Part shown: one piece after another, positions 12,512 to 44,302 of the stretch
Numbering within the stretch: the first letter of the stretch is position 1
How the letters are laid out: each line of letters starts with the position of its first letter
Assembly (NCBI GenBank): GCA_018819405.1
Contig: JAHJQF010000001.1
Coordinates: 817,469-881,468, forward strand
Length of the DNA: 64,000 nt
Direction of reading: 5' to 3'
DNA from: Patescibacteria group bacterium
Lineage (GTDB): Bacteria > Patescibacteriota > Patescibacteriia > UBA1558 > GWA2-36-10
Notes under the pieces: model-generated
Told to the model about the DNA's origin: nothing
The model's database searches: none
What the model saw: the letters and a program-made list of their open reading frames with translations, nothing else
Made by a program: the position numbers and the translations under genes

Positions 12512-12540
12512 ATTGACAAAATCATAAATATATGATATAA
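12512..12540 (+). promoter_or_regulatory. Sigma70-like promoter (TTGACA-17-TATAAA) for GC-rich cassette A
   Basis: ttgacaaaatcataaatatatgatataaa lies ~55 nt upstream of the RBS AGGAGGA. Confidence 0.5.
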
Positions 12541-12598
12541 AAAATAGTCCCAAGTTGTCCTGAAACTCCCTACAACACACAACAGGAGGAAAATAATC

Positions 12599-12877
12599 GT
12601 GACAACTTCGAAGGTAAGACTGCTGCCACAGGGGCGGGTATTTCTGGAGGAGTTGATCCGACTCAGGATCAGCAAACGATACGACCTCGACGAAGTAGTC
12701 GAAAAGTTGAACGCCGCTATCAGCGGGCGCAAATTCAACGGCTGTTGGGCCTTCATCGAGTTCGGCATCGCCGCTACCGACCCCCAGGTGATCTGTCTGC
12801 AGTTCACGCAGGACGGACAACCGGGTACGTTCACGTTCTCACAAGAGAACATTGACAACATCCTGGCTGAATACTGA
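12599..12877 (+). CDS. Hypothetical 92-aa protein in GC-rich cassette A
   Basis: RBS caggaggaaaataatc, then a GTG start. Visibly GC-rich ORF with E. coli-like codons, followed by a hairpin terminator. No recognisable domain. Confidence 0.5.
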   Translation: MTTSKVRLLPQGRVFLEELIRLRISKRYDLDEVVEKLNAAISGRKFNGCWAFIEFGIAATDPQVICLQFTQDGQPGTFTFSQENIDNILAEY

Positions 12878-12912
12878 CATACGTCAGCCAGACAACTATG
12901 GCAACATGCCAA

Positions 12913-12944
12913 AAAGGACCACGCTTCAGCGAGGTCCTTTTCTT
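12913..12944 (+). terminator. Rho-independent terminator of cassette A
   Basis: aggaccacgcttcagcgaggtcc followed by ttttctt. Confidence 0.6.
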
Positions 12945-12955
12945 ATTTTAATTTT

Positions 12956-13996
12956 CTAAGCTGCCGCTTTCAAATTTTCTATTTCCCCTATAAAACTATC
13001 AATATCTAATAACTCCATTTTTCTTTTTATCTCCGCTTGCATAAAAGGAGTTTGTCCGGCAAAATCATCAGATTCTATATAAATATTCATTTGTTCTTTT
13101 ATCTCTTTCAAAACCTTGAGAGTCCTGTTTATCTGTTCTCTTTCCCCTTTTGGCAAAACTTGAGATATAGGAGCTAATCCATCATTTCGTTGGGATTTGG
13201 CATATTGATTAGGACTCTGGCCAGCTTGTCTGGCTTTTTGAGCTCTGATTTCCAAAAGTTTTTGCATATAACTCATACCTGACAACTTGTCTATATAATC
13301 ATCCAAATCTTCCTGAATAAAAACTCTAAAAATAGCGCCTGCCTCTGGATTTTCAGGAAAAAATCTAATCGGATCCTTAGTAATATGTCTTTTTTTATCA
13401 GAAAAAGATCTTTGAATACCAATTATTATTTTTTCTCCCTCTTCATCTCCTTGAGTGGATAAACTAGTAGAATCAAACTCCAATATTTCATCTATACCAT
13501 CCAAATAATCCTGCCTTGGTCTTGCCTCCTTAGCTTCCAAACCATCAATACCCAAATCATTGATTATTTTTGTAAACACAGGGCTATGGTTACGTGCTGT
13601 TTCCTGCTGAAGATTATCATACGAAGCCCCTTCATGAGTAAATTTCTGGTGTTGGCGTATAGAAGCTGCTGTGCGATTATCAACTGACTTTTGATGAAGA
13701 TCTCTCAAAAGATCCTGTAGATTTTTATCCGGCTCCTCTTTTTTGGTTTTAAAAAACCAATCGTACTTTACCCCGATACGTTGTAAATACTCACCAAAAG
13801 TCATAGTCTGATTTTTGGCGGACAAGACTACTTCCACTTCATCATTTTCACGTGGAATAGCAGAAAATTCCCCCAATATACGTGGATGTACAACTTCATG
13901 AAAACGACCTTTTATATCATGAAAATTTATTGTCTCAAAGGTTTTTTCTTGTTCTTGGGCATTTATTTCTTGAGATTTCATTTCTAAAGTTTCCAT
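12956..13996 (-). CDS. Hypothetical protein (346 aa), charged and partly coiled
   Basis: Long ORF with native AT-rich composition. No domain recognised. Confidence 0.4.
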   Translation of the reverse strand: METLEMKSQEINAQEQEKTFETINFHDIKGRFHEVVHPRILGEFSAIPRENDEVEVVLSAKNQTMTFGEYLQRIGVKYDWFFKTKKEEPDKNLQDLLRDLHQKSVDNRTAASIRQHQKFTHEGASYDNLQQETARNHSPVFTKIINDLGIDGLEAKEARPRQDYLDGIDEILEFDSTSLSTQGDEEGEKIIIGIQRSFSDKKRHITKDPIRFFPENPEAGAIFRVFIQEDLDDYIDKLSGMSYMQKLLEIRAQKARQAGQSPNQYAKSQRNDGLAPISQVLPKGEREQINRTLKVLKEIKEQMNIYIESDDFAGQTPFMQAEIKRKMELLDIDSFIGEIENLKAAA

Positions 13997-14069
13997 ATAT
14001 AAATATTATATTTTTAAAACTATCCATACTATATTATGGATAGACAAAATATTCAAGTGCTATATTTTA

Positions 14070-15086
14070 TTAATTAGCATTTCTAAATAAAGATCGGGCA
14101 AGATACCAATATTCTGAATGCCCTTTTTCTTTTTGGACATACCACCACTCCACTCCCCACAAATAAGCTTGCCTAAAATCTGTATTTATTGCAAATTGTA
14201 AGTTGGCTTCAAATTGCTCCACTGAAAAAGACTTGTTATATTCCTTGAAATCAAGATCAGCCAAAGTACCATTTGGTACCCATGGTTCAGTCTGAAGCTC
14301 GCTAATAATTGACGAATGCTTATTTATACCAAACAAATCAGCCTTAAAACCATAAAACCAGTCAGGAATTGGATACCTGACATATCTAAACCAGGGATTC
14401 CATACTACCCGATACATCGTAGTGGCAAATATATCAGCTAGCTGCCCTTCCTGACGCCAAGAGCTCAACTCGCCGGAGGCAGAGATAATGATTGGTCGGT
14501 CATCCAAACTTTTTACCAATTCTATTTCTTGTTTCAAAAACTGCTTATCACCTTTTGGGCATTTGCCAAACCAATCAAGCAAAGGTTCATTTTCTACTTG
14601 CCAAGCCACAATTTCCGGCCGGTCTTTGTATCTATTCACCAGCCTCTCAAGCAACAATAAAGTCTGCCCTTTGATATCATTTATTTCATCGTTGTTCAAC
14701 CAGACCGGATTATGACATTCCGGCCAACGTGGCAAACGCCAGCCGATATTGGCGATAAACTTTACATTTCTTTTGGCGCCCTCATCAAATATATAATCAT
14801 AATCATCAAAGACAAAGACACCCTCTTCTTTTTCTATCTGGTCCCAATATATAGGTATGCGTATATTTTTCACTTCCAAATCATCCAAAACTTCTACGTA
14901 TACCTCTTTCCAGTCCAAACCCAGCTCAGTAGCAAATTTTGGTGAATAAGTCAGCCCCCAATAATTTTCTTTGGCCTCCAAATCAATCTTAGTCGGATAA
15001 TGACTATCTATCTTAAAAGACCACAATAATATCAATATAATTACGAGTGGTATCCAATATCTTTTTTTTATTTTTATCTTTTTCAT
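14070..15086 (-). CDS. Membrane-anchored glycoside hydrolase, GH5-like TIM-barrel
   Basis: 338 aa with an N-terminal signal-anchor, a WQVENEP (NEP acid/base) block and a later QTEPW candidate nucleophile block. Confidence 0.5.
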   Translation of the reverse strand: MKKIKIKKRYWIPLVIILILLWSFKIDSHYPTKIDLEAKENYWGLTYSPKFATELGLDWKEVYVEVLDDLEVKNIRIPIYWDQIEKEEGVFVFDDYDYIFDEGAKRNVKFIANIGWRLPRWPECHNPVWLNNDEINDIKGQTLLLLERLVNRYKDRPEIVAWQVENEPLLDWFGKCPKGDKQFLKQEIELVKSLDDRPIIISASGELSSWRQEGQLADIFATTMYRVVWNPWFRYVRYPIPDWFYGFKADLFGINKHSSIISELQTEPWVPNGTLADLDFKEYNKSFSVEQFEANLQFAINTDFRQAYLWGVEWWYVQKEKGHSEYWYLARSLFRNAN

Positions 15087-15094
15087 TATAAAAA

Positions 15095-16033
15095 TTAAAT
15101 AGCCATAAAGTATAAACCCAAAGCTATAAAAATAATGGCTAGCACTTTTTTGGACAGACGCCCATGACCATAATCTTCTTTTGCTATCTTAGGATAAAAA
15201 AATGTAAGCAGACCACTAAATAGCAACACCAAAGCATATTGTAAACCTTGTAGGGATGTCACCAGAGCTACAGAACCCAGAGCTACAGCATAATTTTGTA
15301 AAACAGAGCCCAACGCTCCCATACCCTGCGTACCTACATAAATAAATTTATTATTTTTTTGTTTATTTGATTTTTTTATTTCTGAAAATATTTCCTGCCG
15401 AGAAGATTGTTTTATAAGTAAAAATAAAACCGTCAAAAATGTACCGATTCTGACCCAGATAAATCCACTGACAAATTCTTGAGTATTATAAACTTGCTTG
15501 GTACCAACCCAAAAAAGAGCAAAAAATAAAGCGGCTATAATAGTAGAAAAAATACTCGGTAGTTGATATGGATCTAAAATATTTAAAAACTTTCTAATAT
15601 TAAACCAAATATTATGATGAACCGAAGTCCTAGAAATTATTATAGTACCTGATATCAAAAATAAAATAGCCAGCCATTGATAATTGCTGAATTTTTCTGC
15701 AAACAAAAGTAGAGAAAATAACACTGTAAAAACCGGTACCATACCGCCTACCAAAGTAAAAATCCGACTGGCTTCACCACCTTTGAGACCACGGTACAAA
15801 AAAAACAAACCACCGGCAAAAAAAGATCCCACCAAACAGTCAAAGAAAAACAAACCCCAGCCCGGCCAAGTCAAAAACCAAGGTGCTAGCAAGACCACTG
15901 CTACTCCGGTAGCGCCCACCAAAAATGTATAAGTCTTCGGACCAGGTATGACATTTTCCAAAATAAATTTATCAGCCACATTGACCAAACCCAGTACAAA
16001 ATAAGCTAAAATGGCAACTAGCAGCCAACTCAT
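15095..16033 (-). CDS. Polytopic membrane protein (about 10 TM), possible DMT/EamA-like or flippase-like protein
   Basis: 312 aa, highly hydrophobic. Overlaps the upstream gene start by 4 nt. Confidence 0.3.
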   Translation of the reverse strand: MSWLLVAILAYFVLGLVNVADKFILENVIPGPKTYTFLVGATGVAVVLLAPWFLTWPGWGLFFFDCLVGSFFAGGLFFLYRGLKGGEASRIFTLVGGMVPVFTVLFSLLLFAEKFSNYQWLAILFLISGTIIISRTSVHHNIWFNIRKFLNILDPYQLPSIFSTIIAALFFALFWVGTKQVYNTQEFVSGFIWVRIGTFLTVLFLLIKQSSRQEIFSEIKKSNKQKNNKFIYVGTQGMGALGSVLQNYAVALGSVALVTSLQGLQYALVLLFSGLLTFFYPKIAKEDYGHGRLSKKVLAIIFIALGLYFMAI

Positions 16034-17361: not shown

Positions 17362-17362
17362 A

Positions 17363-18709: not shown

Positions 18710-18826
18710 TTTTATTTTTATTTACTCTCCTACTAAAAAGATTCGTCTAATTTCTAATATTAGATATTTCTTTACCAGCTTTGCGGCGGTGTTTTTTCTT
18801 GGCTAATTTCTTTTTCTTATTCACTT

Positions 18827-18855
18827 TGTTAGACCTGTTAAAAATTAATTAAAAG
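18827..18855 (-). promoter_or_regulatory. Copy of the conserved upstream motif (TTAATTAATTTTTAACAGGTCTAACAAA-GTG), degenerate
   Basis: On the minus strand it reads ttaattaatttttaacaggtctaacaaa directly 5' of a GTG-initiated 25-codon basic ORF. Confidence 0.4.
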
Positions 18856-22220: not shown

Positions 22221-22447
22221 AAGCGTAATATTAACTTATTAATTATTATTTTTCATCAATAAATATAGCACATTTAAAAAAGTTTGTGAATATTTGTCAA
22301 TAAAAATGGGGGAAAACTTATACACAGTTACAAAAATTTGTCAAATTACTGGGTTTTTTGCTTTTTATTTTTATTTCAAAGAAAGGCCCCGGAGTCAAAA
22401 AGACTACGGGGCCATCACCATCATCAATAACAGAGAGAAGTGCCAAT

Positions 22448-22615
22448 TCAGATCAGGTTGGCAATGTTGTAGCTGCACTTGCGTCTGTGCTGACCATCTG
22501 TGCATTTGCACTCCTGGCAGATGTCTCGTCTCGTATCTGCTGCCTGACGCTCCTCCTGAGTAACAGTAGTGTCCTCACGCTTGTCGCTCATATTGTACCT
22601 TCTTTCGTTGGACAT
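22448..22615 (-). CDS. GC-rich cassette B, gene 3: 55-aa Cys-containing mini-protein
   Basis: RBS ggaggtaggctg then ATG. MSNERRYNMSDKREDTTVTQEERQAADTRRDICQECKCTDGQHRRKCSYNIANLI, followed by hairpin ggccccg...cggggcc. Confidence 0.45.
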   Translation of the reverse strand: MSNERRYNMSDKREDTTVTQEERQAADTRRDICQECKCTDGQHRRKCSYNIANLI

Positions 22616-22626
22616 CAGCCTACCTC

Positions 22627-22830
22627 CTAAATATTTGCCGCATCCACAGATACCGCAGCGATTTTTGCTGCTTCCAGCTCCTCTTGTCTGAGTTTTTTGA
22701 GCCTCTCCAGGCAAGAAATTGGCGTGCAAAATTCCTGCCCGCAAAAATTACAACGCCATTTCCCTTTTGGCAGATTTCGATTGCCTTGGCAATCGTCCCC
22801 AGCTTCTGCTTCCTTGGACAAATCAGTCAT
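22627..22830 (-). CDS. GC-rich cassette B, gene 2: 67-aa Cys-rich mini-protein (zinc-ribbon-like)
   Basis: MTDLSKEAEAGDDCQGNRNLPKGKWRCNFCGQEFCTPISCLERL... The AAGGAGG directly abuts the ATG (suboptimal spacing), so the start is uncertain. Confidence 0.4.
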   Translation of the reverse strand: MTDLSKEAEAGDDCQGNRNLPKGKWRCNFCGQEFCTPISCLERLKKLRQEELEAAKIAAVSVDAANI

Positions 22831-22850
22831 CCTCCTTGATTGTTCTCCGA

Positions 22851-22931
22851 CTAACAGCCGAAGGTAGTGGGAAAGTAGCTGTCAAACAGCTCGTCGTCGC
22901 TGGCGTCATAGCCGAAAAAATTGTTGCTCAT
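22851..22931 (-). CDS. GC-rich cassette B, gene 1: 26-aa peptide MSNNFFGYDASDDELFDSYFPTTFGC
   Basis: RBS gaggag 8 nt before the ATG. First of three tandem small ORFs. Confidence 0.3.
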   Translation of the reverse strand: MSNNFFGYDASDDELFDSYFPTTFGC

Positions 22932-23217
22932 TGTCAGAACTCCTCTGTTTGATGGTTAGTGACTTGTGGTGGAATGTACACTTCTAAAACACCAAAAAAG
23001 CCGCCTTATTGGCGACCTGCATTTTTTGATGTTTAGAAGTTAAATAATTACTACTAGCAAAAAAGCAATCGCCTAAGGCGTCAACAAAATAATGCTAATA
23101 ATGATAATCAAACTTCTAAACATATATTTATATAAATAATAATATCACCACTAAAAAAGACTGTCAATATTTAGATGCGGCTGGTTTTCCTTTGGAAAAC
23201 CAGCCGCCAAAGCACTG

Positions 23218-23448
23218 CTAACCGCGCCAAAATCCCAGGGCAGGAGTATTGAGAATATTCTCGTTGGAAACCCCCAACACTGGATCTCCAGACTCAACAT
23301 CTAAGCTGGCCTGGCACTCGTGTTCTGCACAAGCATCAATAATGCTCCACCCTTTCTGGTAGCGAACCGTTGCCGGACGACTGACGCCCGATTGATCACA
23401 GATTGTACAGACTCCCTCTCCTGACCTAAGAGCCAGCCTCTTAGCCAT
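23218..23448 (-). CDS. GC-rich cassette C: 76-aa CxxC...CxxHxC mini-protein
   Basis: RBS cacggaggtgttgac then ATG. MAKRLALRSGEGVCTICDQ...DACAEHECQ, followed by hairpin gcggctggtttt...aaaaccagccgc. Confidence 0.45.
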   Translation of the reverse strand: MAKRLALRSGEGVCTICDQSGVSRPATVRYQKGWSIIDACAEHECQASLDVESGDPVLGVSNENILNTPALGFWRG

Positions 23449-23544
23449 GTCAACACCTCCGTGATTGTAATGATAGAGCTCATCTTGGAGCTCCCCCAGT
23501 TTTATCAGAGATTTCCTCCTATCCTAGTTTAGTAGTCAATAGTA

Positions 23545-23733
23545 TCAAAACCCATCCCCCTTTATCTGCCCGTTAGGCAAACTGGAATTGGAGACAATTT
23601 CCTGAGCAACTGTCGGCGCCTCTTTATCCGTATTTTCCAGATACAGACACTGATCATAGCGGCCACGCAGACAGTTTCGACAATAGCAGATTTCCATAAA
23701 TCCGCCGCTGGGATGTGGGATTTTCTGACGCAT
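23545..23733 (-). CDS. GC-rich cassette D: 62-aa Cys-containing mini-protein
   Basis: RBS aaaggagggtggtc then ATG. MRQKIPHPSGGFMEICYCRNCLRGRYDQCLY... A TTGACA lies upstream on the minus strand (-35 candidate). Confidence 0.45.
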   Translation of the reverse strand: MRQKIPHPSGGFMEICYCRNCLRGRYDQCLYLENTDKEAPTVAQEIVSNSSLPNGQIKGDGF

Positions 23734-23982
23734 GACCACCCTCCTTTGTGCACTAAGTGCGGTTGAATGCTTATGTCAATGAACTCTATCAAAAAAGGCC
23801 GCTGTTAGGCGACCTTTATTTTGTATAATTTATAAATTTTGAAATATATGATTACACAAAACTAGGTCGTCTGAGCGTCCAAAATAAATGAAATGCGAAT
23901 ATAGGTGTGATTTAGTTTTGTGAAATTTATTATCATATTGAATTTAGCTTATCATAGCTTAAAATATCTTGTCAAATGTTTT

Positions 23983-25020: not shown

Positions 25021-25155
25021 AAAAAACTCTCTTTTTATTATAGAGAGTAGATTCGTCATCTTTCCCTCCAAATAGGGTTGGACTTAGCACCTTTCTAAAA
25101 GTAGGTTGCTGACGGATCATAGAGCCAAATCTCTCCCCGTTCTCTTGATAATTTA
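25021..25155 (-). promoter_or_regulatory. SAM-I (S-box) riboswitch with intrinsic terminator, in the metK leader
   Basis: The minus strand reads TTATCAAGAG..GGGAGAGA..GGCTCTATGA..GTCAGCAACC..AAGGTGCTAAGTCC..GGAGGGAAAG, then hairpin actctct-ataataaaa-agagagt plus TTTTT. This matches the S-box consensus blocks. Confidence 0.7.
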
Positions 25156-25799: not shown

Positions 25800-26540
25800 T
25801 TACTCAATAACTATTTTTGTACCAACCTGGGACCACCAATATAGGGGTTCCATGTTTTCGTAGGCTACATTGACACAACCATGGCTCATCGGGTGACCAA
25901 AATTGTTGTGCCAATAAGCTCCGTGGATATAATATCCGTAGATACGCTTGGTAAAAAGCAAATTCCATTTGGTATTGGGATAATCATAGCCTATACCTCC
26001 ATAATGTTTGGTGGGAAATTTTTGCATAACCTCAAAATCTCCAACTGGAGTATCCATCCCTCTTACTCCGGACGATATCTTAAATGAATCCATCATCTTA
26101 TCACCAAAATAATAAGATAGACTTTGGTCTTTTATATTTACTTTGATAAGCTTCTCTATCTGTATTGGACGCATATCTAAAGGATCGTAAGCGTTGAGTA
26201 CTTCCTGTCCATCACTATAGCCGTCATGGTCAGTATCAGTGTCCATCAAATCAGTGCCCAATAAAAGCTCCCAATTATCATTGAGATTATCACCATCTGA
26301 GTCAATCTGCATCAAACGAGCGCCATCGCCTTTGAGAGGCGAATAACCATACTTTATCTCTTCACCGTCAGAAAAACCATCTCCATCAGTATCTGGATTT
26401 TTGTGATCAGTATAATATATCTGGATTTCATATAAATCATTTAAACCATCACCGTCACTATCCGCCAAAACTTGAGCCAAACATAAACCAGGAAAAAATA
26501 AAAAAAGGCCAGCTGTAAATATAAATACTTTTATATTCAT
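25800..26540 (-). CDS. L,D-transpeptidase (YkuD fold) with N-terminal Asp-rich calcium-binding-like repeats
   Basis: Signal peptide. DSDGDGLNDLYE, DTDGDGFSDGEE and DTDHDGYSDGQE repeats (thrombospondin-type-3-like). C-terminal HGxxxxxxGxSHGCV catalytic block (YIHGAYWHNNFGHPMSHGCVNV). Confidence 0.75.
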   Translation of the reverse strand: MNIKVFIFTAGLFLFFPGLCLAQVLADSDGDGLNDLYEIQIYYTDHKNPDTDGDGFSDGEEIKYGYSPLKGDGARLMQIDSDGDNLNDNWELLLGTDLMDTDTDHDGYSDGQEVLNAYDPLDMRPIQIEKLIKVNIKDQSLSYYFGDKMMDSFKISSGVRGMDTPVGDFEVMQKFPTKHYGGIGYDYPNTKWNLLFTKRIYGYYIHGAYWHNNFGHPMSHGCVNVAYENMEPLYWWSQVGTKIVIE

Positions 26541-26728
26541 AATTAAATTATAACATATTTTACAGATAAATATAATAAATATTGACTAAAGGTGGTTTTT
26601 AGGTTACATTATTTAAATAATCTCGGCCCTTTTCATTTGCAACATAGAAAGGAGGTTTTGACAGTTCAAGGATGAACGCTAGCTCTTGAAGCTAGCACAA
26701 AACAAACCCTAGGAACAGGAGTTCCAAA

Positions 26729-27067
26729 ATGCAAGCAAGTGCTGCTATTTTCAATCAGCTCCTCGACACGCTGGGAGTGCCGAGCCGACAGAGGCCGCTC
26801 AACAATGAGCAGGCCGAAAGACTCGGTATGCAACTGGTCCACGTCTGGCAAAAAAACAGCAAACTGCTGGCAGCTGCCCATCGCAACTTGCCAGCAAGTC
26901 GCCACGAAGCTGGGCGCTTGGCTCGGATGAATGGTGACCATTGTCACCATTTGGCAACAGCCATGGTCGCCAAGATGGACCAGATCGCTCCCGACAACGA
27001 TCCGATACTCTCCTCAGTCGTGAGGTCTCTCAACGAATCACTTGCTCACAATCAGGCCTCGGCCTGA
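26729..27067 (+). CDS. GC-rich cassette E: hypothetical 112-aa helical protein
   Basis: RBS aggag 7 nt before the ATG. An upstream leader holds a 5-codon mini-ORF (ATGAACGCTAGCTCTTGA) embedded in the hairpin gctagct-cttga-agctagc. Confidence 0.5.
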   Translation: MQASAAIFNQLLDTLGVPSRQRPLNNEQAERLGMQLVHVWQKNSKLLAAAHRNLPASRHEAGRLARMNGDHCHHLATAMVAKMDQIAPDNDPILSSVVRSLNESLAHNQASA

Positions 27068-27085
27068 TTCTCGCCAACTCCTTTC

Positions 27086-27128
27086 GACCCCGTCGCGCAA
27101 ACTTGTACGACGGGGTCTTCTTTTTTTA
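27086..27128 (+). terminator. Rho-independent terminator of cassette E
   Basis: gaccccgtcgcgcaaacttgtacgacggggtc followed by ttcttttttt. Confidence 0.7.
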
Positions 27129-32743: not shown

Positions 32744-32772
32744 TTGACAAAAAACTAAATATATGTTAATAT
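32744..32772 (+). promoter_or_regulatory. Consensus sigma70 promoter (TTGACA-17-TAATAT) driving the ncRNA candidate
   Basis: ttgacaaaaaactaaatatatgttaatat. Confidence 0.6.
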
Positions 32773-32778
32773 AGCAAG

Positions 32779-33030
32779 GTTCAACTAATAATAACTTTTC
32801 TTTCAATTCGCAGGAGAAAAATTTAGGTGATAGATTGCCGCGCGGCTCTCGCTAGCGCTGTCCAATTCTTAAGTGCTCAAACACTGCGGGATTGTTGACA
32901 CCTCGCGCAGCAAATCAGGTCACCTGGGATAGCTATTTGAACTAGCACATCGCCTGTTCAAGTCCCCGCTCCTGCTTGGAGCCCGATACTACACAATGGA
33001 ACAAAACGTGTGGGTCGGGCTCTTTTTTTT
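32779..33030 (+). ncRNA. Unclassified GC-rich structured small RNA candidate (~250 nt), stand-alone between uvrB and rlmN
   Basis: Promoter upstream, then a GC-rich noncoding stretch with multiple palindromes (cgctagcg, agtgctcaaacact, ccgcgcgg...cgcgcag). Ends in a strong terminator gagcccga...tcgggctc plus T8. No ORF with an RBS. Confidence 0.5.
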
Positions 33031-35860: not shown

Positions 35861-36014
35861 ATATATCTAAATTATAACCTGCTATATAAAATATTGTCAA
35901 AAATCTCATATATTGACAAAAAATCTAAAAAATTATACTATATATTGTTTTCCAAGCGCAAGAAAGCTATATGCTAACTTGCTAAATTGTTCACACAAGC
36001 CTGGAGGAAAGTAC

Positions 36015-36470
36015 ATGGAACGGAAATACCTGACTTTTGAAATGTCCGGACAGATCATTGCACTATGGGTTCTGCAAATTAAAGAAATCTCTGATATGCA
36101 AAATATTCATCTGGTACCCAACGCTGGCGACGGTCTGCTGGGCGTGTTCGCATTGCGAGGTCGCAACATACCGGTCTTTGAATTCCGCACTGGCGAGCCG
36201 CGAATCAGCGAATGCATCATCGTCATCAAAGTGGATGCACCCAATCTGCATAGTTTCGCGCTGATCGTGGATAGACCCGAAGAGGTCTTGAGTATTCCGG
36301 ATGATTTGCCTCGCTCGCCGATCGAAGAAAAAACTCTGCGTCAAGCAGTGACGCCGGCTTGTCAAGGTATCAAATACCAGGTCTCCCACGATGACCGCCA
36401 ATTCTGGCTGATGGATCCTGAGAACATCCTGAGCAAAGAGCAGTTGGCCAGAGCCGCCTCACTGCTCTAG
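36015..36470 (+). CDS. GC-rich cassette F, gene 1: CheW-like domain protein (151 aa)
   Basis: TTGACA-17-TACTAT promoter, RBS ctggaggaaagtac then ATG. Core LTFEMSGQIIALWVLQIKEISDMQNIHLVPNAGDGLLGVFALRGRNIPVFEFR matches the CheW fold (hhxFxhxxxxYxhxhxxVxEIxxxxxIxxVPxxPxxhxGhhNLRGxxhPVhDLR). Confidence 0.65.
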   Translation: MERKYLTFEMSGQIIALWVLQIKEISDMQNIHLVPNAGDGLLGVFALRGRNIPVFEFRTGEPRISECIIVIKVDAPNLHSFALIVDRPEEVLSIPDDLPRSPIEEKTLRQAVTPACQGIKYQVSHDDRQFWLMDPENILSKEQLARAASLL

Positions 36471-36521
36471 AGCCTTAGCCATTACAACAGGCCAAAAAAG
36501 GTCTAAAACAAGGAGTCTGCC

Positions 36522-36830
36522 ATGATTCACTTTGAGCTGCACCTGCTGGCGTCCAGTCTCGGCCATTTCAAATCAGAAATACAGTTCAAAATAACCGACG
36601 TCGCCGAAAAACTGGAACTTCGCGAGGCTACTCTGGAGATCATCGAGGTCAAGTGCCTAATCAATTTGAACAACGCCTCGGCCTACCCTCACGATTGGGG
36701 GCGCCTGATCATTCAATGTGATGATAGCCACATGATCCAGGAAATCATAAAGGCACTGCAGGAGTCTGACTTCGGTATGATGATCAGCACCACAACCGAT
36801 GTTTTTGTCCCATCCCGACCCACGACATGA
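36522..36830 (+). CDS. GC-rich cassette F, gene 2: hypothetical 102-aa protein (possible ACT/ferredoxin-like fold)
   Basis: RBS acaaggagtctgcc then ATG, co-oriented 50 nt after the CheW-like gene, followed by terminator gccggggtccca-catatg-ggactccggc plus T6. Confidence 0.5.
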   Translation: MIHFELHLLASSLGHFKSEIQFKITDVAEKLELREATLEIIEVKCLINLNNASAYPHDWGRLIIQCDDSHMIQEIIKALQESDFGMMISTTTDVFVPSRPTT

Positions 36831-36896
36831 TGGACTCCTATCCGTTCGTCGATGAACACATCTAGAACCTCGACTGATGGAGTTCATACCTAGACA

Positions 36897-36935
36897 GCCG
36901 GGGTCCCACATATGGGACTCCGGCCTACTTTTTTA
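36897..36935 (+). terminator. Rho-independent terminator of cassette F
   Basis: gccggggtcccacatatgggactccggcctactttttt. Confidence 0.65.
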
Positions 36936-37337: not shown

Positions 37338-37350
37338 TTTGGTCTTTTGA

Positions 37351-37473
37351 GGGGGAGTAGTATAGTGGTAGTCCACCCAGCCGCTCGCGAGCAGCTGGGA
37401 CAGGGGTCTCCACCCAGCCCTTCGCGAAGGGCTGGGTCCACCACAGCCACCATTGTTGGCTGGGTCCAAAACC
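37351..37473 (+). pseudogene. 5' portion of a split tRNA-like gene (acceptor + D-arm + CCA-type anticodon-stem region) interrupted by three GC-rich hairpin elements
   Basis: gggggagtagtatagtggtag, then hairpins tccacccagccgctcgcgagcagctggg, acccagcccttcgcgaagggctgggtcc and accacagccaccattgttggctgggtcc between ggtctcc and aaaacc. No T-arm. Its acceptor is complementary to the 3' piece at 37933-37939. Confidence 0.45.
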
Positions 37474-37515
37474 TAAAAAAGCATAATTAAAACAAGAAAA
37501 GCGATTATTTATTAT

Positions 37516-37752
37516 GTGTATATTTTAAAATTAAATAGCGGCAGATTTTATATAGGTTATACGAAAAATATAAAAAGAAGATTATCTGAACACAAAAGAA
37601 AAAAATCTTACATAACTGGCCGAGAAAAATGTTTTGAATTAATCTACTTTGAAGCTTATAATGAGATATACCCAGCTCAAGAAAGAGAGAAAAAACTCAA
37701 ACAATACGGATCAGCTTATCATGGATTATTAAAAAGGTTAAAAATTCGCTAA
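37516..37752 (+). CDS. GIY-YIG nuclease-family small protein (78 aa), second copy in the window
   Basis: MYILKLNSGRFYIGYTKNIKRRLSEHK...E..K. Sits between the two halves of the split tRNA-like gene. Confidence 0.7.
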   Translation: MYILKLNSGRFYIGYTKNIKRRLSEHKRKKSYITGREKCFELIYFEAYNEIYPAQEREKKLKQYGSAYHGLLKRLKIR

Positions 37753-37760: not shown

Positions 37761-37836
37761 GGGGGTGTAGTGTCAATGGCTAGCACGTCGGTCTCCAAAA
37801 CCGTAAGTCTGGGTTCGAATCCTAGCACCCCTGCCA
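37761..37836 (+). tRNA. tRNA-Trp (anticodon CCA), intact
   Basis: gggggtgtagtgtcaatggctagcacgtcggtctccaaaaccgtaagtctgggttcgaatcctagcacccctgcca. U8 and T-loop ttcgaat are present, with a G-U closing pair in the acceptor. Confidence 0.85.
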
Positions 37837-37866: not shown

Positions 37867-37943
37867 CTGGTCTCCACCCAGCCGCTCGCGAGAGGCTGGG
37901 TCCAAAACCTCTAGCGTGGGTTCGATTCCTACCTCCCCTGCCA
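37867..37943 (+). pseudogene. 3' portion of the split tRNA-like gene (anticodon-loop region with one inserted hairpin, T-arm, acceptor 3' strand, CCA)
   Basis: ctggtctcc[acccagccgctcgcgagaggctgggtcc]aaaacctctagcgtgggttcgattcctacctcccctgcca. Removing the bracketed 28 nt gives ggtctccaaaacc, identical to the tRNA-Trp anticodon loop. Confidence 0.45.
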
Positions 37944-38022
37944 GCTTAAGATCATCTTTTGAGATGGTTTTTTTGTTTGCAAAAGAAAAGGAGACTCACG
38001 AATTTTGAATTCATAAATCTCC

Positions 38023-38502
38023 TTAATCATCATCATTGTAAATGCGACATTGATATTCGCATTCATCACACCAGCCATCACTATCTAACTTTGTTGCTGG
38101 ATTGCCACAGTTTAGACATATACCCTTCTCTCTTGCTTCATTTACCTTCCTTTCTTTTCTTAAGGCTATTTCTTTTGCTTCTCTCTGAGCTTTTAATGAC
38201 TCTTTATTTATCCTTTCCATTTCTAATCTATAACGCTCTTCTCTGTTTACTTCCCGTTCTTTTGTTATTATGTCATATTTCTTTACTTCTTCACTAAGCT
38301 GTTTGTCAAAACATTTAGGGCATAGTTTTTTCCCGTGAAAATTGGTGAAGATTGTTTCTTTTTTCTTTTTGCATTTATCACAAATGCCTTTACTACAAAG
38401 TGTGATGTTTTTGCCCTGTCTAGATGAGGCGCCTCTCTTACTATCCAAAACAATACCCACCCAAACCACGAACATAAGCAGGGCTAAGACGATGATTCCC
38501 AT
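38023..38502 (-). CDS. Hypothetical membrane-anchored protein with two zinc-ribbon-like Cys clusters and a coiled coil
   Basis: 159 aa. N-terminal TM, CxxC...CxxC pairs (CDKCKKK...CPKCF and CLNCGN...CDEC). Confidence 0.4.
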   Translation of the reverse strand: MGIIVLALLMFVVWVGIVLDSKRGASSRQGKNITLCSKGICDKCKKKKETIFTNFHGKKLCPKCFDKQLSEEVKKYDIITKEREVNREERYRLEMERINKESLKAQREAKEIALRKERKVNEAREKGICLNCGNPATKLDSDGWCDECEYQCRIYNDDD

Positions 38503-38718
38503 TCTTGTACCTCCAGAAAGGGTTGATGGTCAACGTACGAACAAATCATATTATATTAATATACTTTACTGTTTTTGTCAATCCTTATTATCAAAAAAAG
38601 TTCAAACACCAACCCACAGTCCCTGCCAAAAAACACCGATTACAAAAATTGGTGTTTTTTGATTAAAAAAAGACCGTCTCTTGAAGGTGGACGGCCTTAC
38701 CCGGCTCGTGGAGCCAAA

Positions 38719-38910
38719 CTAGTGATAGATCCCCGCATGGACACCAGCGATACCGAGGAGGACCCCCATGATCACGTAAGTGACCTTGTAGAGCGGCTGA
38801 TGCCACTCCGGATGCTCGTCCCAGTTGATCTGGACGATCTTCCTGTCGATGATGTTGGTGACCAAAGGGCAGATCAACAACGCGAGAATGAACTGCAACA
38901 TACCAGACAT
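38719..38910 (-). CDS. GC-rich cassette G: 63-aa two-helix membrane peptide
   Basis: Minus-strand promoter TTGACA-17-TATATT. RBS caaggaaggatgcc then ATG. MSGMLQFILALLICPLVTNII...GVLLGIAGVHAGIYH. Terminator ccgtc...gacgg plus T7. Confidence 0.45.
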   Translation of the reverse strand: MSGMLQFILALLICPLVTNIIDRKIVQINWDEHPEWHQPLYKVTYVIMGVLLGIAGVHAGIYH

Positions 38911-39067
38911 GGCATCCTTCCTTGTTTGTGTACAGCTATTAGCCGGAATTGGCTATTTTTAGCATTAAATTAATATAGCATAAAATAGCTTTTTTGTCAA
39001 TAATATTAATTTGACCTAAATTCTCAATATAGTATAATTAACAAACTATTATTAAACTAAAGCAAAT

Positions 39068-39745: not shown

Positions 39746-39804
39746 ATTAAAAAACAGCCTCTTTTGGCTGTTTTTTAATTCCCAAAATCTGCTATAATAA
39801 AAAC

Positions 39805-40842
39805 ATGGAAATACATAAATATTTGGAAAGTAAGCTAAAAAACTGTTCACAATATGCACTAACAAAAGAAGACCAAGAGTATATTGAAAAATACTCATTA
39901 AAAGATTTTCTTTTCAAAGAAATAAGTCGAAAAAAATTTAGGCGTTGGAAATTGTCTGATCCAGCTCGTGAAAAAATAGACAAAGCGCTTGACTATTGTC
40001 TGGCTGAAAATAAGCCAATAATTTTTCGTTCTCGTTTCGGTGGCTACAAATTATGGCGTTTTCCGACTACTCCCGAAGTAGATTGGGCAGAATTTTTTAT
40101 GCTCTGCCACTATATTGAGTATCTAGCTCCTATCATAGCCGCCTACAAGCCTGGTATAAAACTTTATTTTGCTTCAGATGATGTATTTGTAGAACGCCTA
40201 GACAACATACCCAAATCACACACTGAAGCTTACTATCAAAGTTTTCAAAAATTACTAAATCAATTCAGAAAATATATTCCCAAAAATTTTGAAGTGGATA
40301 TGATAAGGCATAGTTCGCTGTTTAAATCCAGAAAAGAATTTGAGCTTGAATTTGATCAATCTGTCAAAAATGCAGCCAAAAAAGAAAATTGGGACATCAA
40401 ACGCCAAAGCCAACCTCTAGAAGCCGCCCTCAAAACATCCGAAATGAATATAAATTGGAACGGCGTAGAAGATTTGACCAAACTGTCAGATTCTGAAAAA
40501 GAAGAAAAGATAAAACAGAGTGTCCTCTATCACGATGCCCTGGTACAAATGCCCACTATAAGGCAATGGTCATCTACTCCTGATAAAATAGCTATCTTTA
40601 CTACACCGCTTTCTGCAGTAGTCCCTATAGGAGTCACTAAAAATTCTGTAGTCAGATTTTGGGTTGGTACAGGAGTGCTAGAAAAAAGAAATGATAAATA
40701 TATAGAACATGTATTGTCTATCAGCCAATATGAATCAATCAAAAATATTCCTTTTGAAGAAATAAAAATAAATTTTATTCCTTTGCATAATTTTTCCAAT
40801 ATTCGATTGTATAAACAAATGCTTAACTTTTCCAACAAATAA
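39805..40842 (+). CDS. Hypothetical protein (345 aa)
   Basis: Native AT-rich ORF. No domain recognised. Confidence 0.35.
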   Translation: MEIHKYLESKLKNCSQYALTKEDQEYIEKYSLKDFLFKEISRKKFRRWKLSDPAREKIDKALDYCLAENKPIIFRSRFGGYKLWRFPTTPEVDWAEFFMLCHYIEYLAPIIAAYKPGIKLYFASDDVFVERLDNIPKSHTEAYYQSFQKLLNQFRKYIPKNFEVDMIRHSSLFKSRKEFELEFDQSVKNAAKKENWDIKRQSQPLEAALKTSEMNINWNGVEDLTKLSDSEKEEKIKQSVLYHDALVQMPTIRQWSSTPDKIAIFTTPLSAVVPIGVTKNSVVRFWVGTGVLEKRNDKYIEHVLSISQYESIKNIPFEEIKINFIPLHNFSNIRLYKQMLNFSNK

Positions 40843-40848
40843 TCTGAT

Positions 40849-41610
40849 ATGAAAAAAATAATTATATTTTTGCTAGCTATATTTTTATACGGTTGCCAAA
40901 TAATAGAAGCCCCTATTAATGACACCCAAAATATAACGGTAATTAATACTAATACTGCCAACGACAATCAAACAAATACTACACCAGAAAAAAATAATGA
41001 GCCAAAAAATGAAGATATTGTCTGCACTATGGATGCGATGCTTTGTCCGGACGGTACTTATGTTTCTAGAGTTGCGCCTGATTGTAATTTTGCTCCCTGT
41101 CCTGAAATAGGCAAACTCATCCAGCCAATAGCTGAGTTTGACAAAAGAATTAGCAAAAAACCATTTAGCATATATATCACACCAAAAGATTCGCCTGTTC
41201 AGCCAGAAAAATTCACTGGCTATCATACGGGAGCTGATGTAGAATATTCAGATATGCCAGATGCTGACATAACAGTCCATGCCATAGCTGACGGCCAAGT
41301 TGTCCGCTCCGGCTGGGTCAGTGGCTATGGTGGTATGATTGCTATCAGGCACAATATAGAAGGGAAAGATTATATAGTTATTTATGGACACCTCAAGCCA
41401 GATACTTTAGAAAAAAATGAATCTGATATAAAATCAAACCAAGTGATTGGTCTATTAGGCCAGGGATACAGCTATGATACTGATGGCGAAAGAAAACACC
41501 TTCATTTTGCCATTTATACCGGCACTGATATCAATGTCCAAGGCTACGCACAAAGCCAGGATGAATTAAAAAAATGGCTTGATCCTCAAAAATTTTTATT
41601 AAATAAATAA
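40849..41610 (+). CDS. M23-family (LytM-like) metallopeptidase lipoprotein
   Basis: Lipoprotein signal (LLAIFLYGCQ). HTGADVEY (HxxxD), GYGGMIAIRHN and HLHFAIY (HxH) blocks. Confidence 0.8.
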   Translation: MKKIIIFLLAIFLYGCQIIEAPINDTQNITVINTNTANDNQTNTTPEKNNEPKNEDIVCTMDAMLCPDGTYVSRVAPDCNFAPCPEIGKLIQPIAEFDKRISKKPFSIYITPKDSPVQPEKFTGYHTGADVEYSDMPDADITVHAIADGQVVRSGWVSGYGGMIAIRHNIEGKDYIVIYGHLKPDTLEKNESDIKSNQVIGLLGQGYSYDTDGERKHLHFAIYTGTDINVQGYAQSQDELKKWLDPQKFLLNK

Positions 41611-41614
41611 TTTA

Positions 41615-41647
41615 ACACCCTCGCTACTAGAACGAGGGTGTTTTTTC
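41615..41647. terminator. Bidirectional hairpin terminator between the M23 gene and cassette H
   Basis: caccctcg-ctactagaa-cgagggtg followed by tttttt. Confidence 0.6.
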
Positions 41648-41651
41648 ATGC

Positions 41652-41855
41652 CTATTTGGCATGATTTGTCTCCAAAGCCTTGACCAAAAGATCTTTGTAG
41701 TCGGCATCAAAAAAGCCGACGATGGTCACCTGACCCTGGATTGTGTTGTCCACTTCGCGTTTGAGACGCGCTCCTAAGTCACCGTTGATGGGTCCCAAAC
41801 TACTGAAAACGAAATCTCCGGACATGGTCTTGACGACTTTTTGCCAGTTGGACAT
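41652..41855 (-). CDS. GC-rich cassette H: hypothetical 67-aa protein
   Basis: RBS cataaaggagcaggtc then ATG. MSNWQKVVKTMSGDFVFSSLGPINGDLGARLKREVDNTIQGQVTIVGFFDADYKDLLVKALETNHAK. TTGACA lies upstream on the minus strand. Confidence 0.45.
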   Translation of the reverse strand: MSNWQKVVKTMSGDFVFSSLGPINGDLGARLKREVDNTIQGQVTIVGFFDADYKDLLVKALETNHAK

Positions 41856-42002
41856 GACCTGCTCCTTTATGAAAAGTGTACACCAGCAACCTCTAACTAG
41901 TCAGGATACTATGTAATAGCTTCATTGTCAATATAAATATAGATATTTGCAAATTCCAAAAAAGTGCTATAATAATATTATTAACAAACCTAAACTAAGA
42001 AA

Positions 42003-43328
42003 ATGAATAACGAAAAGCCTCCATCGGCGCCCTTTGAAAAGAAAAGATTTCTTTTTGTTTCTTTTGATGCGCTGATAAGTGACGTGGCCTGGCAAGTCCT
42101 AAAAGAGGGTCATGAAGCTAAATATTTTATAAAAAATCAAGCTATCAAAGATGTAGCCGACGGCTTTGTGCCAAAAAGCGATGATTGGGAAAAAGACCTA
42201 GACTGGGCAGACATTGTTGTTTTTGATGATGTCCTTGGTATGGGAACTATGGCTGAAAAAGTCAGAAAGCGCGGTATTCCAGTCATTGGTGGCACACCAT
42301 ATACCGACCAATTAGAAGACGACCGTTCTTTTGGTCAGGAGGAATTAAAAAAGGCTGGCATTCCTATAATCCCTTACGAAACATTTACTGATTTTGATGC
42401 TGCCATTGATTATGTCAAAAAAAATGAAAATCGTTATGTTATCAAACCTAGCGGCGAAGCTCAAAATACCAAACATTTTCTTTTTGTCGGTCAAGAAGAA
42501 GACGGTAAAGACGTCATCCAGATGCTAGAGGCTTACAAAAAAGTTTGGAGTCAGAAGATAAAAGAATTTCAACTACAAAGAAGAATGTCAGGAGTAGAAG
42601 TAGCCGTCGGAGCATTTTTTAACGGTTATGAATTTGTCTTTCCAATAAATATCAACTTTGAGCACAAAAAAATGTTTCCTGGCAATATTGGCCCATCTAC
42701 TGGGGAAATGGGTACATCTATGTTTTGGTCAGGCCAAAATAAAATATTTAATAATACTCTGAAAAAAATGGAGCCGATTCTGCGTCGTGAAAAATACACC
42801 GGCTATATTGATCTCAATTGTATTGTAAATGGTAATGGTATTTATCCCCTAGAATTTACTGCTCGCTTTGGCTATCCAACTATCCAGATACAAATGGATG
42901 GCATACTTATGCCTATTGGACAATGGCTCTATGAAATGGCTACTGGCACACTAAAAAATTTCAAAACAAAAACCGGCTTTCAAGTCGGAGTCAGACTGGT
43001 AGTCCCTCCTTATCCCTATGGCTCAAGCATCAAAACTGAGCTAGCTGAATACAAAAATGCCCTTATAATATTTAAAAAACCAGCTTCGGAAGGTATTCAC
43101 ATTGTAGAGACCAAATTGATAAACGGAGAATGGATAGTAACTGGCGATCACGGAGTGGCTTTGATAGTAGTCGGCACTGGTTCTACTATGAAGCAAGCCC
43201 AGCAACAGGTCTATCATAGAATTCAAAATATATTAATACCAAATATGTTTTACCGGGATGATATAGGCGACCGCTGGTTTGAAGACAGCGACAAACTGCA
43301 CAACTGGGGCTACCTCAGAGAATCCTAA
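42003..43328 (+). CDS. ATP-grasp enzyme, phosphoribosylamine--glycine ligase (PurD)-like
   Basis: 441 aa with blocks parallel to PurD: IKPSGEA (cf IKADGLAAGKG), HKKMFPGNIGPSTGEMG (cf HKRVGDKDTGPNTGGMG), PLEFTARFGYPTIQIQM (cf VIEFNCRFGDPETQPIM). The N-domain is divergent. Confidence 0.55.
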   Translation: MNNEKPPSAPFEKKRFLFVSFDALISDVAWQVLKEGHEAKYFIKNQAIKDVADGFVPKSDDWEKDLDWADIVVFDDVLGMGTMAEKVRKRGIPVIGGTPYTDQLEDDRSFGQEELKKAGIPIIPYETFTDFDAAIDYVKKNENRYVIKPSGEAQNTKHFLFVGQEEDGKDVIQMLEAYKKVWSQKIKEFQLQRRMSGVEVAVGAFFNGYEFVFPININFEHKKMFPGNIGPSTGEMGTSMFWSGQNKIFNNTLKKMEPILRREKYTGYIDLNCIVNGNGIYPLEFTARFGYPTIQIQMDGILMPIGQWLYEMATGTLKNFKTKTGFQVGVRLVVPPYPYGSSIKTELAEYKNALIIFKKPASEGIHIVETKLINGEWIVTGDHGVALIVVGTGSTMKQAQQQVYHRIQNILIPNMFYRDDIGDRWFEDSDKLHNWGYLRES

Positions 43329-43825
43329 AAATATTTAGAAATAATTATCTTAAACCAGTCAGTATATATATCAGGCTGGTTTTTGATTTGATCTTTTATA
43401 GTTTTGATATCAAGCCATTTGATATCAGATATTTCATTTTTGTCAAAATCAACTGGGTCATCATAGTATCCAAAAAACACATGGTCATATTCATGTTCCG
43501 TCAGACCGTTGTCAAACTCGGCTTTATAAATAAAAGAAAATTTTTCTTCCAAATCACAATCAAACCCCAGCTCTTCTTTGAGACGACGATGAGCTGCTGA
43601 CAAAGTATCTTCCTCTGGCTTGGGATGGCTACAACAAGTATTTGTCCACATACCAGGACAATGATATTTGCTGTCTACTCTTTTTTGTAAAAGCAGTTGA
43701 CCAAATCTGTTGAAAATCAAAATAGAGAAAGCTCGATGAAGCTGACCTTTTTTGTGTACTTCCATCTTCTGACCAGTACCAATTGGCTGATCATTTTTAT
43801 CTACGAGTATTATATCGTCTGGCAT
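43325..43825 (-). CDS. idi: Isopentenyl-diphosphate delta-isomerase, type 1 (Nudix)
   Basis: 166 aa with LHRAFSILIFNRFGQLLLQKRVDSKYHCPGMWTNTCCSHP, matching the IDI-1 signature (LHRAFSVFLFN...LLLQRRA..K.TWPGVWTNSCCGHP). Confidence 0.85.
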   Translation of the reverse strand: MPDDIILVDKNDQPIGTGQKMEVHKKGQLHRAFSILIFNRFGQLLLQKRVDSKYHCPGMWTNTCCSHPKPEEDTLSAAHRRLKEELGFDCDLEEKFSFIYKAEFDNGLTEHEYDHVFFGYYDDPVDFDKNEISDIKWLDIKTIKDQIKNQPDIYTDWFKIIISKYF

Positions 43826-43896
43826 ACCAAAATTATAACAAATATAAAATAAAAAGACACCCCCACTTTCCGCAAAGTGAGGGTGCGCTATTAGCC

Positions 43897-44115
43897 TTAC
43901 AGGCCGGTAGAGGCCTTGGGATGTCTGAGCTTGGGATCAAAGGCACTCAAGCCGTGTGCACCATGATCTATACACTCGCAGACTACTTGGGCCCCCTCAC
44001 CGATGTTGTGTTTGGGGTCCTTGTAGATAATCTTCAACCTCTGGCCATGCAGACGATGACCTGCCTGATCGACCACAACAACTTCACCGCAGATAGTGCC
44101 CCTAATTGTTTCCAC
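43897..44115 (-). CDS. GC-rich cassette I: hypothetical 72-aa Cys/His-containing protein
   Basis: RBS ctcaggaggaagtc then a GTG start. METIRGTICGEVVVVDQAGHRLHGQRL...VVCECIDHGAHG. Terminator cacttt-ccgc-aaagtg within a longer GC stem plus a T-run. Confidence 0.45.
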   Translation of the reverse strand: METIRGTICGEVVVVDQAGHRLHGQRLKIIYKDPKHNIGEGAQVVCECIDHGAHGLSAFDPKLRHPKASTGL

Positions 44116-44302
44116 GACTTCCTCCTGAGGCTATGGTTATTAGTGACAGGGAACTTATTTTTAAAACTTATAAATTAGCAATACCATAAAAATTATTTTT
44201 AGTCAATAAAACCAAAATTTATTTTAGTAAATTTTTCATTTAACTCTTCCAAAAAGCGATCTGAACAAAATAAGTAAGCCAAAGGATATATCTCTTAAAG
44301 CA

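Follow-up and report, generated by a model that had tools for sequence, protein, structure and literature searches.

GC-rich small-protein cassettes between the housekeeping genes of an AT-rich Patescibacteria chromosome, a possible second gene class whose composition appears to be maintained

Why does an AT-rich bacterial chromosome carry, between its housekeeping genes, a set of short blocks that are much richer in GC, and are these blocks new arrivals or old residents? The question is raised by a stretch of 64,000 nucleotides (hereafter the window; contig JAHJQF010000001.1, positions 817,469 to 881,468) of the ~1.035 Mb chromosome of a member of the Patescibacteria, or Candidate Phyla Radiation (CPR). 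The overall GC content of the window is 0.368. A preliminary description of this DNA took the blocks for a dispersed family of self-contained small-protein genes, either foreign mini-genes acquired repeatedly or a dedicated small-protein system. The explanation towards which we lean, somewhat more confident than doubtful, is that they form a second class of genes in a Komeilibacteria-like CPR chromosome: long-resident, moron-like accessory cassettes whose composition would be maintained in place. The closest relatives, found by a search with rlmN, are a Candidatus Komeilibacteria metagenome-assembled genome (MAG) and further MAGs. Three were used for comparison: L089 (rlmN 85% identical), L004 (rlmN 77% identical) and the Komeilibacteria MAG, L005.

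The GC content was analyzed in 200-bp windows. The eight listed blocks are numbered here I1 (12513-12949, + strand), I2 (22376-23167, -), I3 (23170-23779, -), I4 (26582-27127, +), I5 (35913-36934, +), I6 (38664-39000, -), I7 (41614-41931, -) and I8 (43857-44206, -). All of them are true GC peaks and contrast with their flanks as had been proposed, with peak values of 0.49-0.575 (z = 2.5-4.1), where the DNA outside the islands has 0.362 +/- 0.052. A GC content of at least 0.50 is reached outside the islands by one window only, which lies within a long native open reading frame (ORF). Two additional GC-rich intergenic blocks, Ix (32.79-33.04 kb) and Iy (37.34-37.48 kb), were absent from the earlier list. 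The remainder of the window on either side (1-12.5 kb and 44.2-64 kb) and the 10 kb past its end contain no further block of this kind, so that the units are concentrated in ~32 kb. The contrast is also visible in the codons: GC content at third codon positions (GC3) is 0.44-0.81 in island ORFs versus 0.24-0.37 in native genes, and the annotated island frames follow the order GC3 > GC1 > GC2, GC2 being low. Within a unit, the ORFs with their 3' untranslated region (UTR) and terminator have a GC content of ~0.47-0.56 and the promoters one of 0.2-0.3. The 50 native codons nearest to the islands have a GC3 of 0.297, versus 0.303 in the remainder of the same genes. The compositional boundary is thus the boundary of the transcription unit, which by inference would place the constraint on the transcript or on its translation.

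Chimeric assembly was considered as the source of the islands and ruled out. The window is 100% identical to ENA contig k141_591135 (1,035,872 bp) and to two Logan contigs (SRR6514730 and SRR10598174), over stretches of 20.2, 12.9 and 1.0 kb that cover I5, I6, I7, I8 and Ix, and no joins were seen across the islands. A strain variant of I2 (L094), 92.5% identical, is also on record; together with the three independent matching assemblies it excludes a chimera. The small ORFs correspond exactly to NCBI proteins MBU1203230 to MBU1203260 (locus tags KKH39_04290 to KKH39_04450). All are annotated merely as "hypothetical protein", and standard annotation indeed does not group them.

GC-rich intergenic regions in AT-rich genomes are usually structured RNAs, and the islands could be read as structured non-coding or dual-function RNAs whose ORFs are incidental. 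Whole units do fold better than shuffled controls (z-scores of -2.6 to -6.3), the ORF of I4 reaches -4.7 by itself, the leaders of I4 and I6 are highly conserved, Ix lacks a convincing ORF and Iy is what is left of an RNA. However, the folding excess is found mostly in terminators and 3' UTRs (z = -5 to -6), and ORFs folded alone, with the exception of that of I4, mostly have z-scores between +0.5 and -2.2 (average ~-1.3). No listed island has a match in Rfam, either at the gathering score or at E <= 5. Conservation follows the codons: identity at positions 1, 2 and 3 is 0.58, 0.73 and 0.36 between I4 and its homologue in L004, and 0.64, 0.70 and 0.38 between the first gene of I5 and its homologue in L089. 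This gene (36015-36470) matches Pfam PF01584 (CheW) over nearly the full profile (1-137 of 138; E 2.4e-15, 56.8 bits for a curated cut-off of 23.5), which confirms the CheW fold noted earlier. It also matches PDB 2qdl weakly. All three ORFs of the I2 strain variant are open: of 150 codons, 14 have changed synonymously and 16 non-synonymously, and the one indel, of 3 nt, is in frame. A rough site count gives a dN/dS of ~0.4. From the codon-position conservation, the GC3 pattern, the I2 variant, the CheW domain and the kept length of the I6 protein (below), we conclude that the listed blocks are small-protein genes, as had been claimed. With a correctly spaced Shine-Dalgarno (SD) site and start codon on 12 of 12 ORFs in addition, the RNA reading is extremely improbable.

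The units follow a common plan. An AT-rich sigma70-type promoter is followed by a 5' leader of 40-110 nt; then come one to three ORFs (26-151 aa), each preceded by a correctly spaced SD site, and the unit closes with an intrinsic terminator. The promoter usually has the form ATTGACAAAA, with a 17-nt spacer and a TATAAT-like -10 element. A consensus scan recovered five promoters (I1, I5, I6, I7, Ix) and three terminators (I5, I7, I8); the remaining ones were assigned by eye. The sizes and numbers of ORFs and the self-contained promoter-ORF-terminator architecture given in the preliminary description were correct on this reading. The TTGACA promoter given there for each unit needs a correction for I2: none lies beside its first ORF, and the nearest is ~200 nt upstream (23167-23139). 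We therefore regard the 12 ORFs in eight units, plus one micro-ORF or small-RNA unit (Ix), as what their sequences indicate to be genuine, separately transcribed small-protein genes.

Initiation signals also separate the two kinds of genes. The SD core match does not exceed 3 nt in 40 of the 44 large ORFs of the window, and three of the four SD-bearing ones are the island CheW gene, an accessory 159-aa gene (38023-38502) and dnaK. The island ORFs all have an SD match of 4-7 nt (12/12; at least 5 nt in 11/12). The same split between native and island genes exists in L089 and L005. Both the AGGAGG-type sites of the islands and the weak or absent sites of native genes had been described earlier and are found again here. 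Several native genes begin 6-8 nt 3' of a TGnTATAAT motif, for example those with starts at 26540 (-), 34053 (-), 39805 (+) and 43825 (-), a spacing which suggests that leaderless mRNAs may be widespread among the native genes of this CPR genome.

The age of the islands can be approached through their homologues. These were found in relatives for I4, CheW, I5b (the second ORF of I5) and I6, and those of I4, CheW and I6 are in matching slots. In L089, the CheW homologue (50% identical) occupies the same rlmN-L33 slot, which also contains the I5b homologue (34% identical) in a different gene order. The I6 homologue, 34% identical and exactly 63 aa long, lies upstream of the FKBP gene, as I6 does in the window. 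The native genes neighbouring these L089 homologues are 68-96% identical and thus diverge far less than the island proteins. In L004, an I4 homologue (42-58% identical) adjoins the same YkuD gene. At the nucleotide level, the promoter and leader of I4 (26583-26728) are 85.5% identical to those of L004 and its 3' UTR and terminator 80%, versus 56-65% for the ORF. For I6 against L089, the corresponding values are 87% for promoter and 5' UTR, 85% for 3' UTR and terminator, and 60% for the ORF; the promoter and leader of I5 are 70% identical to those of L089. Native intergenic regions are 73-91% identical between genomes and island ORFs ~60%. The flanks of I4 and I6 (80-87%) thus behave as native regulatory DNA, and the I4 leader, since it is far better conserved than its ORF, may be a cis-regulatory element. 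Ix has a counterpart 3' of rlmN in both L004 and L089, also GC-rich, with conserved promoter and terminator and a diverged middle.

An approximate fourfold test was applied to the window and L089, in which third-position identity was taken at conserved A/G/P/T/V/L/R/S codons. It is near random both in four large native genes (0.35-0.46) and in CheW (0.33); that of the short L33 gene is 0.79 (14 sites). The GC3 of CheW is nevertheless 0.57 in the window and 0.54 in L089, versus 0.23-0.36 in the four native genes; that of L33 is 0.37 and 0.49. The I4, I5b and I6 homologues have a GC3 of 0.61-0.85 in both genomes. As GC3 is still high although synonymous sites are near saturation, the decay of foreign DNA under AT-biased mutation fits poorly, and the GC richness of these genes appears to be maintained, not merely un-ameliorated. 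In view of these four sets of homologues, a recent arrival is not supported.

The content of the slots varies between genomes. The uvrC-YkuD slot contains I4 in the window and in L004; in L005 its place is taken by a pair of unrelated ORFs of 127 and 140 aa, both GC-rich and SD-led. The number of GC-rich genes in the rlmN-L33 slot is two in the window, four in L089 and zero in L004, where the whole CheW block is missing. The slot after the M23 peptidase gene carries I7 in the window and a non-homologous GC-rich ORF of 71 aa in L089. Between the cassettes of the rlmN-L33 slot in L089 lies a repeated module of 76-95 nt, made of a terminator plus a promoter; its copies (9898-9992, 10526-10618 and 11140-11179 of L089) are 87-93% identical and could be a substrate for cassette shuffling. 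When metagenomes were scanned with the neighbouring YkuD protein, five loci came up; no island occupies the slot in any of them, and in one the slot is empty. In more distant CPR loci such islands are rare.

What the units have in common is a style and not an ancestry. All-against-all BLASTP of the 12 island proteins detected no similarity between any of them, and homology is therefore rejected. Within the window, a search for boundary repeats found no repeat or attC-like family common to the units, the sole likeness between their boundaries being a promoter resemblance of the form TTGACAAAAA. The term "family" is consequently not appropriate. CheW is the sole match of the small proteins in Pfam, PHROGs, NCBIfam and PADLOC. 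PHROGs gave nothing below E = 0.04 for the island proteins, and PADLOC a lone partial match of I4 to Cas12f (E 0.0026 over 40 residues), which is at chance level; an anti-defence or toxin role finds no support in PADLOC, PHROGs or NCBIfam. AlphaFold2 single-sequence models of I5b (pLDDT 54) and I1 (pLDDT 50) were too poor for fold comparison. The shared style is quantifiable: in relative synonymous codon usage, the islands of the window correlate with those of L089 (r = 0.66) and not with native genes (r = -0.1 to -0.4), the native genes of the two genomes correlating at r = 0.90. Together with GC3, this agrees with the earlier statement that island codon usage is foreign to this genome. The amino acids G, A, R and P account for 0.24 of island residues versus 0.205 of native ones, F, Y, M, I, N and K for 0.24 versus 0.32, and Cys is ~5-fold enriched (3.1% versus 0.6% in the window). 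By all these sequence comparisons, the island proteins are fast-diverging, mutually unrelated and limited to a narrow clade.

Where, then, does this style come from? The preliminary description proposed the repeated acquisition of foreign mini-genes, possibly from a GC-richer host. Taken as fairly recent transfer from such a host, or from a phage or a plasmid, this model would mean that the DNA has not yet ameliorated; a variant is continual re-seeding from a reservoir. In its favor, composition, amino-acid usage and SD sites resemble those of an SD-using genome of ~50-55% GC, slot cargo varies between relatives, orphan small proteins are typical of mobile elements, and the L089 repeats that bracket cassettes offer a possible recombination substrate. 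But neither a donor nor an extra-chromosomal copy was detected: among 5.8 billion proteins CheW and I4 have one relative each and none outside the clade (for I4 this is P0011, 73% identical). An exhaustive HMMER search with CheW yielded one relative above 35% (52% identical), the others being ~30%-identical proteins with multiple CheW domains. The relatives of CheW and I4 both come from sister CPR material, either a chromosome or a read set. Three scans of viral contigs, with CheW, I1 and I5b as queries, gave no relatives, in keeping with the absence of PHROG matches, and P0011 and the first ORF of the window have no record in public contigs. In the gene tables of 31.6-51.8 kb and 52-74 kb, the parts covered by the Pfam scan, no integrase, transposase or recombinase adjoins the units. 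The acquisition model is further opposed by AT-rich promoters that are native in style, and by the occupation of the same slots, with conserved promoters and terminators and unchanged GC3, at near-saturated synonymous sites. A recent host or phage donor is thus unsupported, and we consider the model as a whole unlikely.

A further possibility is GC-biased gene conversion: if the slots are recombination hot spots, frequent conversion between strains could raise their GC content and speed up the evolution of their proteins. Its classic signature is rapid change of the amino acids coupled with a raised GC content at each of the three codon positions, and the amino-acid shift described above and the turnover of slot cargo also go in this direction. 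The enrichment does not, however, spill over into native flanks less than 150 bp away, and promoters inside the units have kept their low GC content. Weak-to-strong and strong-to-weak changes are moreover balanced in the I2 strain pair (20 versus 22). The lack of spill-over and this balance make gene conversion a very unlikely cause.

The explanation that we retain, long-resident cassettes with maintained composition, would combine three elements. The cassettes would be of foreign ancestry, moron-like and resident for a long time; their composition would be actively maintained in place; and the likeliest cause would be selection at the level of the transcript, linked to the SD-dependent translation of structured, GC-rich mRNAs among AT-rich messages devoid of SD. 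A more specific proposal is that the cassettes constitute a separate expression channel, defined by GC-rich codons, structured mRNA and SD sites and translated only by ribosomes in a particular state or condition or, more radically, with efficiency by the ribosomes of an SD-using host cell that the CPR episymbiont is attached to. Selection for such a channel would explain why composition and SD sites have persisted across saturated divergence; we find the proposal distinctly doubtful.

Several observations weigh against the maintenance of composition in resident cassettes. The argument is built on four pairs of homologues from two to four related genomes with comparable loci, and among island genes the codon-by-codon test of saturation covers CheW. 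The same pattern would arise if the cassettes had been replaced again and again by diverged homologues out of an unsampled GC-rich reservoir. As to what might keep the GC content high, RNA structure at the level of the ORFs is only weakly above shuffled controls (I4 excepted), and the 5' leaders are moderately enriched, with a GC content of ~0.41-0.43 where measured. SD sites and GC richness are not strictly coupled either, the accessory gene at 38023-38502 being SD-led yet AT-rich. Finally, according to a published survey a subgroup of Parcubacteria lacks the anti-SD motif (PMC9297842).

The only island protein with a recognizable domain, CheW, can be placed in a cellular context. A native MCP-CheW-CheA-CheY operon, AT-rich and devoid of SD, is located just past the window end, ~30 kb from the island CheW gene. 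It adjoins pilB, pilC and pilin genes (2339-9999 of contig L093, corresponding to ~62.3-69.9 kb), and further type IV pilus genes are present at 52-64 kb of the window. The island CheW is 19% identical to the native one and is not in an operon with CheA or MCP. It may plug into the native MCP-CheW-CheA-CheY array near the type IV pilus genes, as a spare adaptor that would modulate this array. Judging by their sequences, the functions of the other islands look heterogeneous: besides the CheW-like protein there are Cys-rich, zinc-ribbon-like proteins (I2 and I3), a small membrane peptide (I6) and orphans.

The individual units, whose neighbours are HU, metK, uvrB, uvrC, rlmN, L33, tRNA, dnaJ and dnaK genes, are organized as follows. 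I1 has a promoter-like site that was found in the scan, with TTGACA at 12513-12518 and an extended -10 element TGATATAAA at 12533-12541, then a leader with AGGAGG, a GTG-started ORF of 92 aa (12599-12877; MBU1203230.1; GC 0.54, GC3 0.71) and a terminator hairpin (12916-12949). The I1 protein forms a singleton cluster and has no family match in Pfam, PHROGs, NCBIfam or PADLOC. I2, between its promoter (23167-23139) and terminator (22376-22413), contains three SD-led ORFs: 22851-22931 (26 aa), 22627-22830 (67 aa, CxxC zinc-ribbon-like) and 22448-22615 (55 aa, Cys-rich). In its AT-rich leader of ~200 nt, two arms of 31 nt (23029-23059 / 23093-23123) make up an inverted repeat, and a terminator-like hairpin is present at 23018-22998; the region (22932-23167, -) could be an attenuator or a small RNA. 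I3, with TTGACA at 23779-23774 and a terminator at 23170-23208, encodes two Cys-rich proteins of 62 aa (23545-23733) and 76 aa (23218-23448), preceded by the SD sites AAGGAGG and GGAGGTG; both have exact copies in public collections, as singleton clusters.

I4 is transcribed from a promoter with TTGACT (26582-26587) and TACATT (26605-26610) and contains an ORF of 112 aa (26729-27067) and a terminator (27086-27127); its leader (26615-26728) includes an upstream ORF of five codons (26672-26689) and a hairpin. I5 has its promoter at 35913-35941 and, after a leader, the CheW gene (151 aa) and I5b (36522-36830, 102 aa), followed by a terminator at 36897-36934. I6 runs from a promoter at 39000-38972, through a leader with a hairpin TAGCC..GGCTA, to a terminator at 38664-38698. 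Its ORF (38719-38910) encodes a hydrophobic protein of 63 aa, probably with two transmembrane segments. I7 has its promoter at 41931-41903 and one ORF of 67 aa (41652-41855). Its terminator (41614-41642) is common to the M23 peptidase gene, the two genes being back-to-back, and its protein has an exact copy in four contigs from independent samples. In I8, the promoter (TTGACT at 44206-44201, with TGgTATTGC) precedes an AGGAGG SD site, a GTG-started ORF of 72 aa (43897-44115; GC 0.525) and the terminator (43857-43886), the latter recovered by the scan.

The two blocks absent from the earlier list are of other kinds. Ix (32744-33030, +) consists of a promoter (32744-32772), a GC-rich transcript of ~200 nt and a terminator (32979-33030). 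Its only coding content is an SD-led ORF of 23 codons with a GTG start near 32827, its folding z-score is -5.0 and it has no Rfam match; it is a probable small-RNA or micro-protein unit. Iy (37345-37480, +) is not a protein cassette: alignment to the intact tRNA-Trp of L089 and L004, located in both directly 3' of the L33 gene, identifies it as a disrupted ancestral tRNA-Trp. The 5' part is kept and followed by three CCCAGC..GCTGGG hairpin repeats, each ending with TCCA, the 3' half being lost; the folding z-score is -3.3. Downstream of 37345-37480, the window contains a 78-aa GIY-YIG gene (37516-37752), then a tRNA-Trp of different sequence (37761-37836), then another copy of the hairpin repeat (37869-37904). 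In sequence the region looks like the replacement of a tRNA gene, tied to a GIY-YIG element and a small palindromic repeat.

Three other features of the region were observed. A riboswitch for S-adenosylmethionine (SAM; RF00162, 66.7 bits) is present at 25053-25154 (-), upstream of metK. The accessory gene at 38023-38502 (-) encodes a Cys-rich and Lys-rich protein and is preceded by a TTGACA promoter of its own, by a leader and by the SD site GGAGGT; it is not found in L089 and could be an older or a different kind of cassette. The conserved 345-aa gene at 39805-40842 (+) belongs to a DIT1/PvcA isonitrile-synthase-like family that is widespread in CPR bacteria, with PF05141 on several homologues; around its more distant relatives synteny is lost.

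If our explanation is right, its consequences go beyond this locus. Atypical composition is routinely taken as a time stamp of recent transfer, and here it seems to be a feature that a class of genes maintains; nor are GC-rich intergenic islands in AT-rich genomes always RNAs. CPR bacteria would have a two-tier expression system and a stock of small proteins that evolve fast, among them a spare CheW near a chemosensory system linked to pili. The island proteins would then be prime candidates for functions in host interaction or conflict.

Literature searches found no description of this phenomenon, and we compared it with several known systems, each of which it resembles in part. Like atypical or ORFan genes and islets, of which the atypical gene class of GeneMarkS-2 is an example of horizontally acquired genes (PMC6028130), the island genes are short, hypothetical, restricted to a lineage and atypical in codon usage. 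They differ in being GC-richer than their host, in the keeping of slots, in the lack of amelioration and in that no donors or mobility genes were found. Compared more narrowly with an islet of recent transfer, they share the atypical composition; a donor is missing, however, and the loci are not absent from relatives, as I4, CheW and I6 occupy the same slots. In lineages blind to SD, rpsU of Flavobacterium carries an SD site as an exception (PMC7797042, PMC13000453), which is similarly a strong SD in a small minority of genes of an otherwise SD-less genome, a status judged here from the genes alone. That case concerns one autoregulated ribosomal-protein gene, whereas the present one concerns unrelated accessory genes of deviant composition.

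GC-rich islands of non-coding RNA are likewise GC-rich blocks bounded by a promoter and a terminator, and Ix, Iy and the SAM riboswitch are of this kind; the eight listed blocks differ by their coding signature and lack of Rfam match. Integron cassettes are small, mostly with a single ORF, and present variable cargo at fixed positions, as here, where L089 even has a repeated junction. Unlike them, the units of the window are dispersed, have their own promoters and all-different terminators, and show neither an attC-like family nor an adjoining integrase. The closest parallel in architecture is with phage morons, which according to the work of Hendrix and Juhala are reportedly autonomous promoter-ORF-terminator units between conserved genes of lambdoid prophages. 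The islands similarly have their own promoter and terminator between conserved genes, a deviant composition, a small accessory protein as product and a presence that varies among relatives. In contrast to morons, they are located between chromosomal housekeeping genes, with no PHROG match and, for CheW, I1 and I5b, no viral-contig relatives; their initiation signal also differs from that of native genes, and their compositional contrast is kept across near-saturated divergence.

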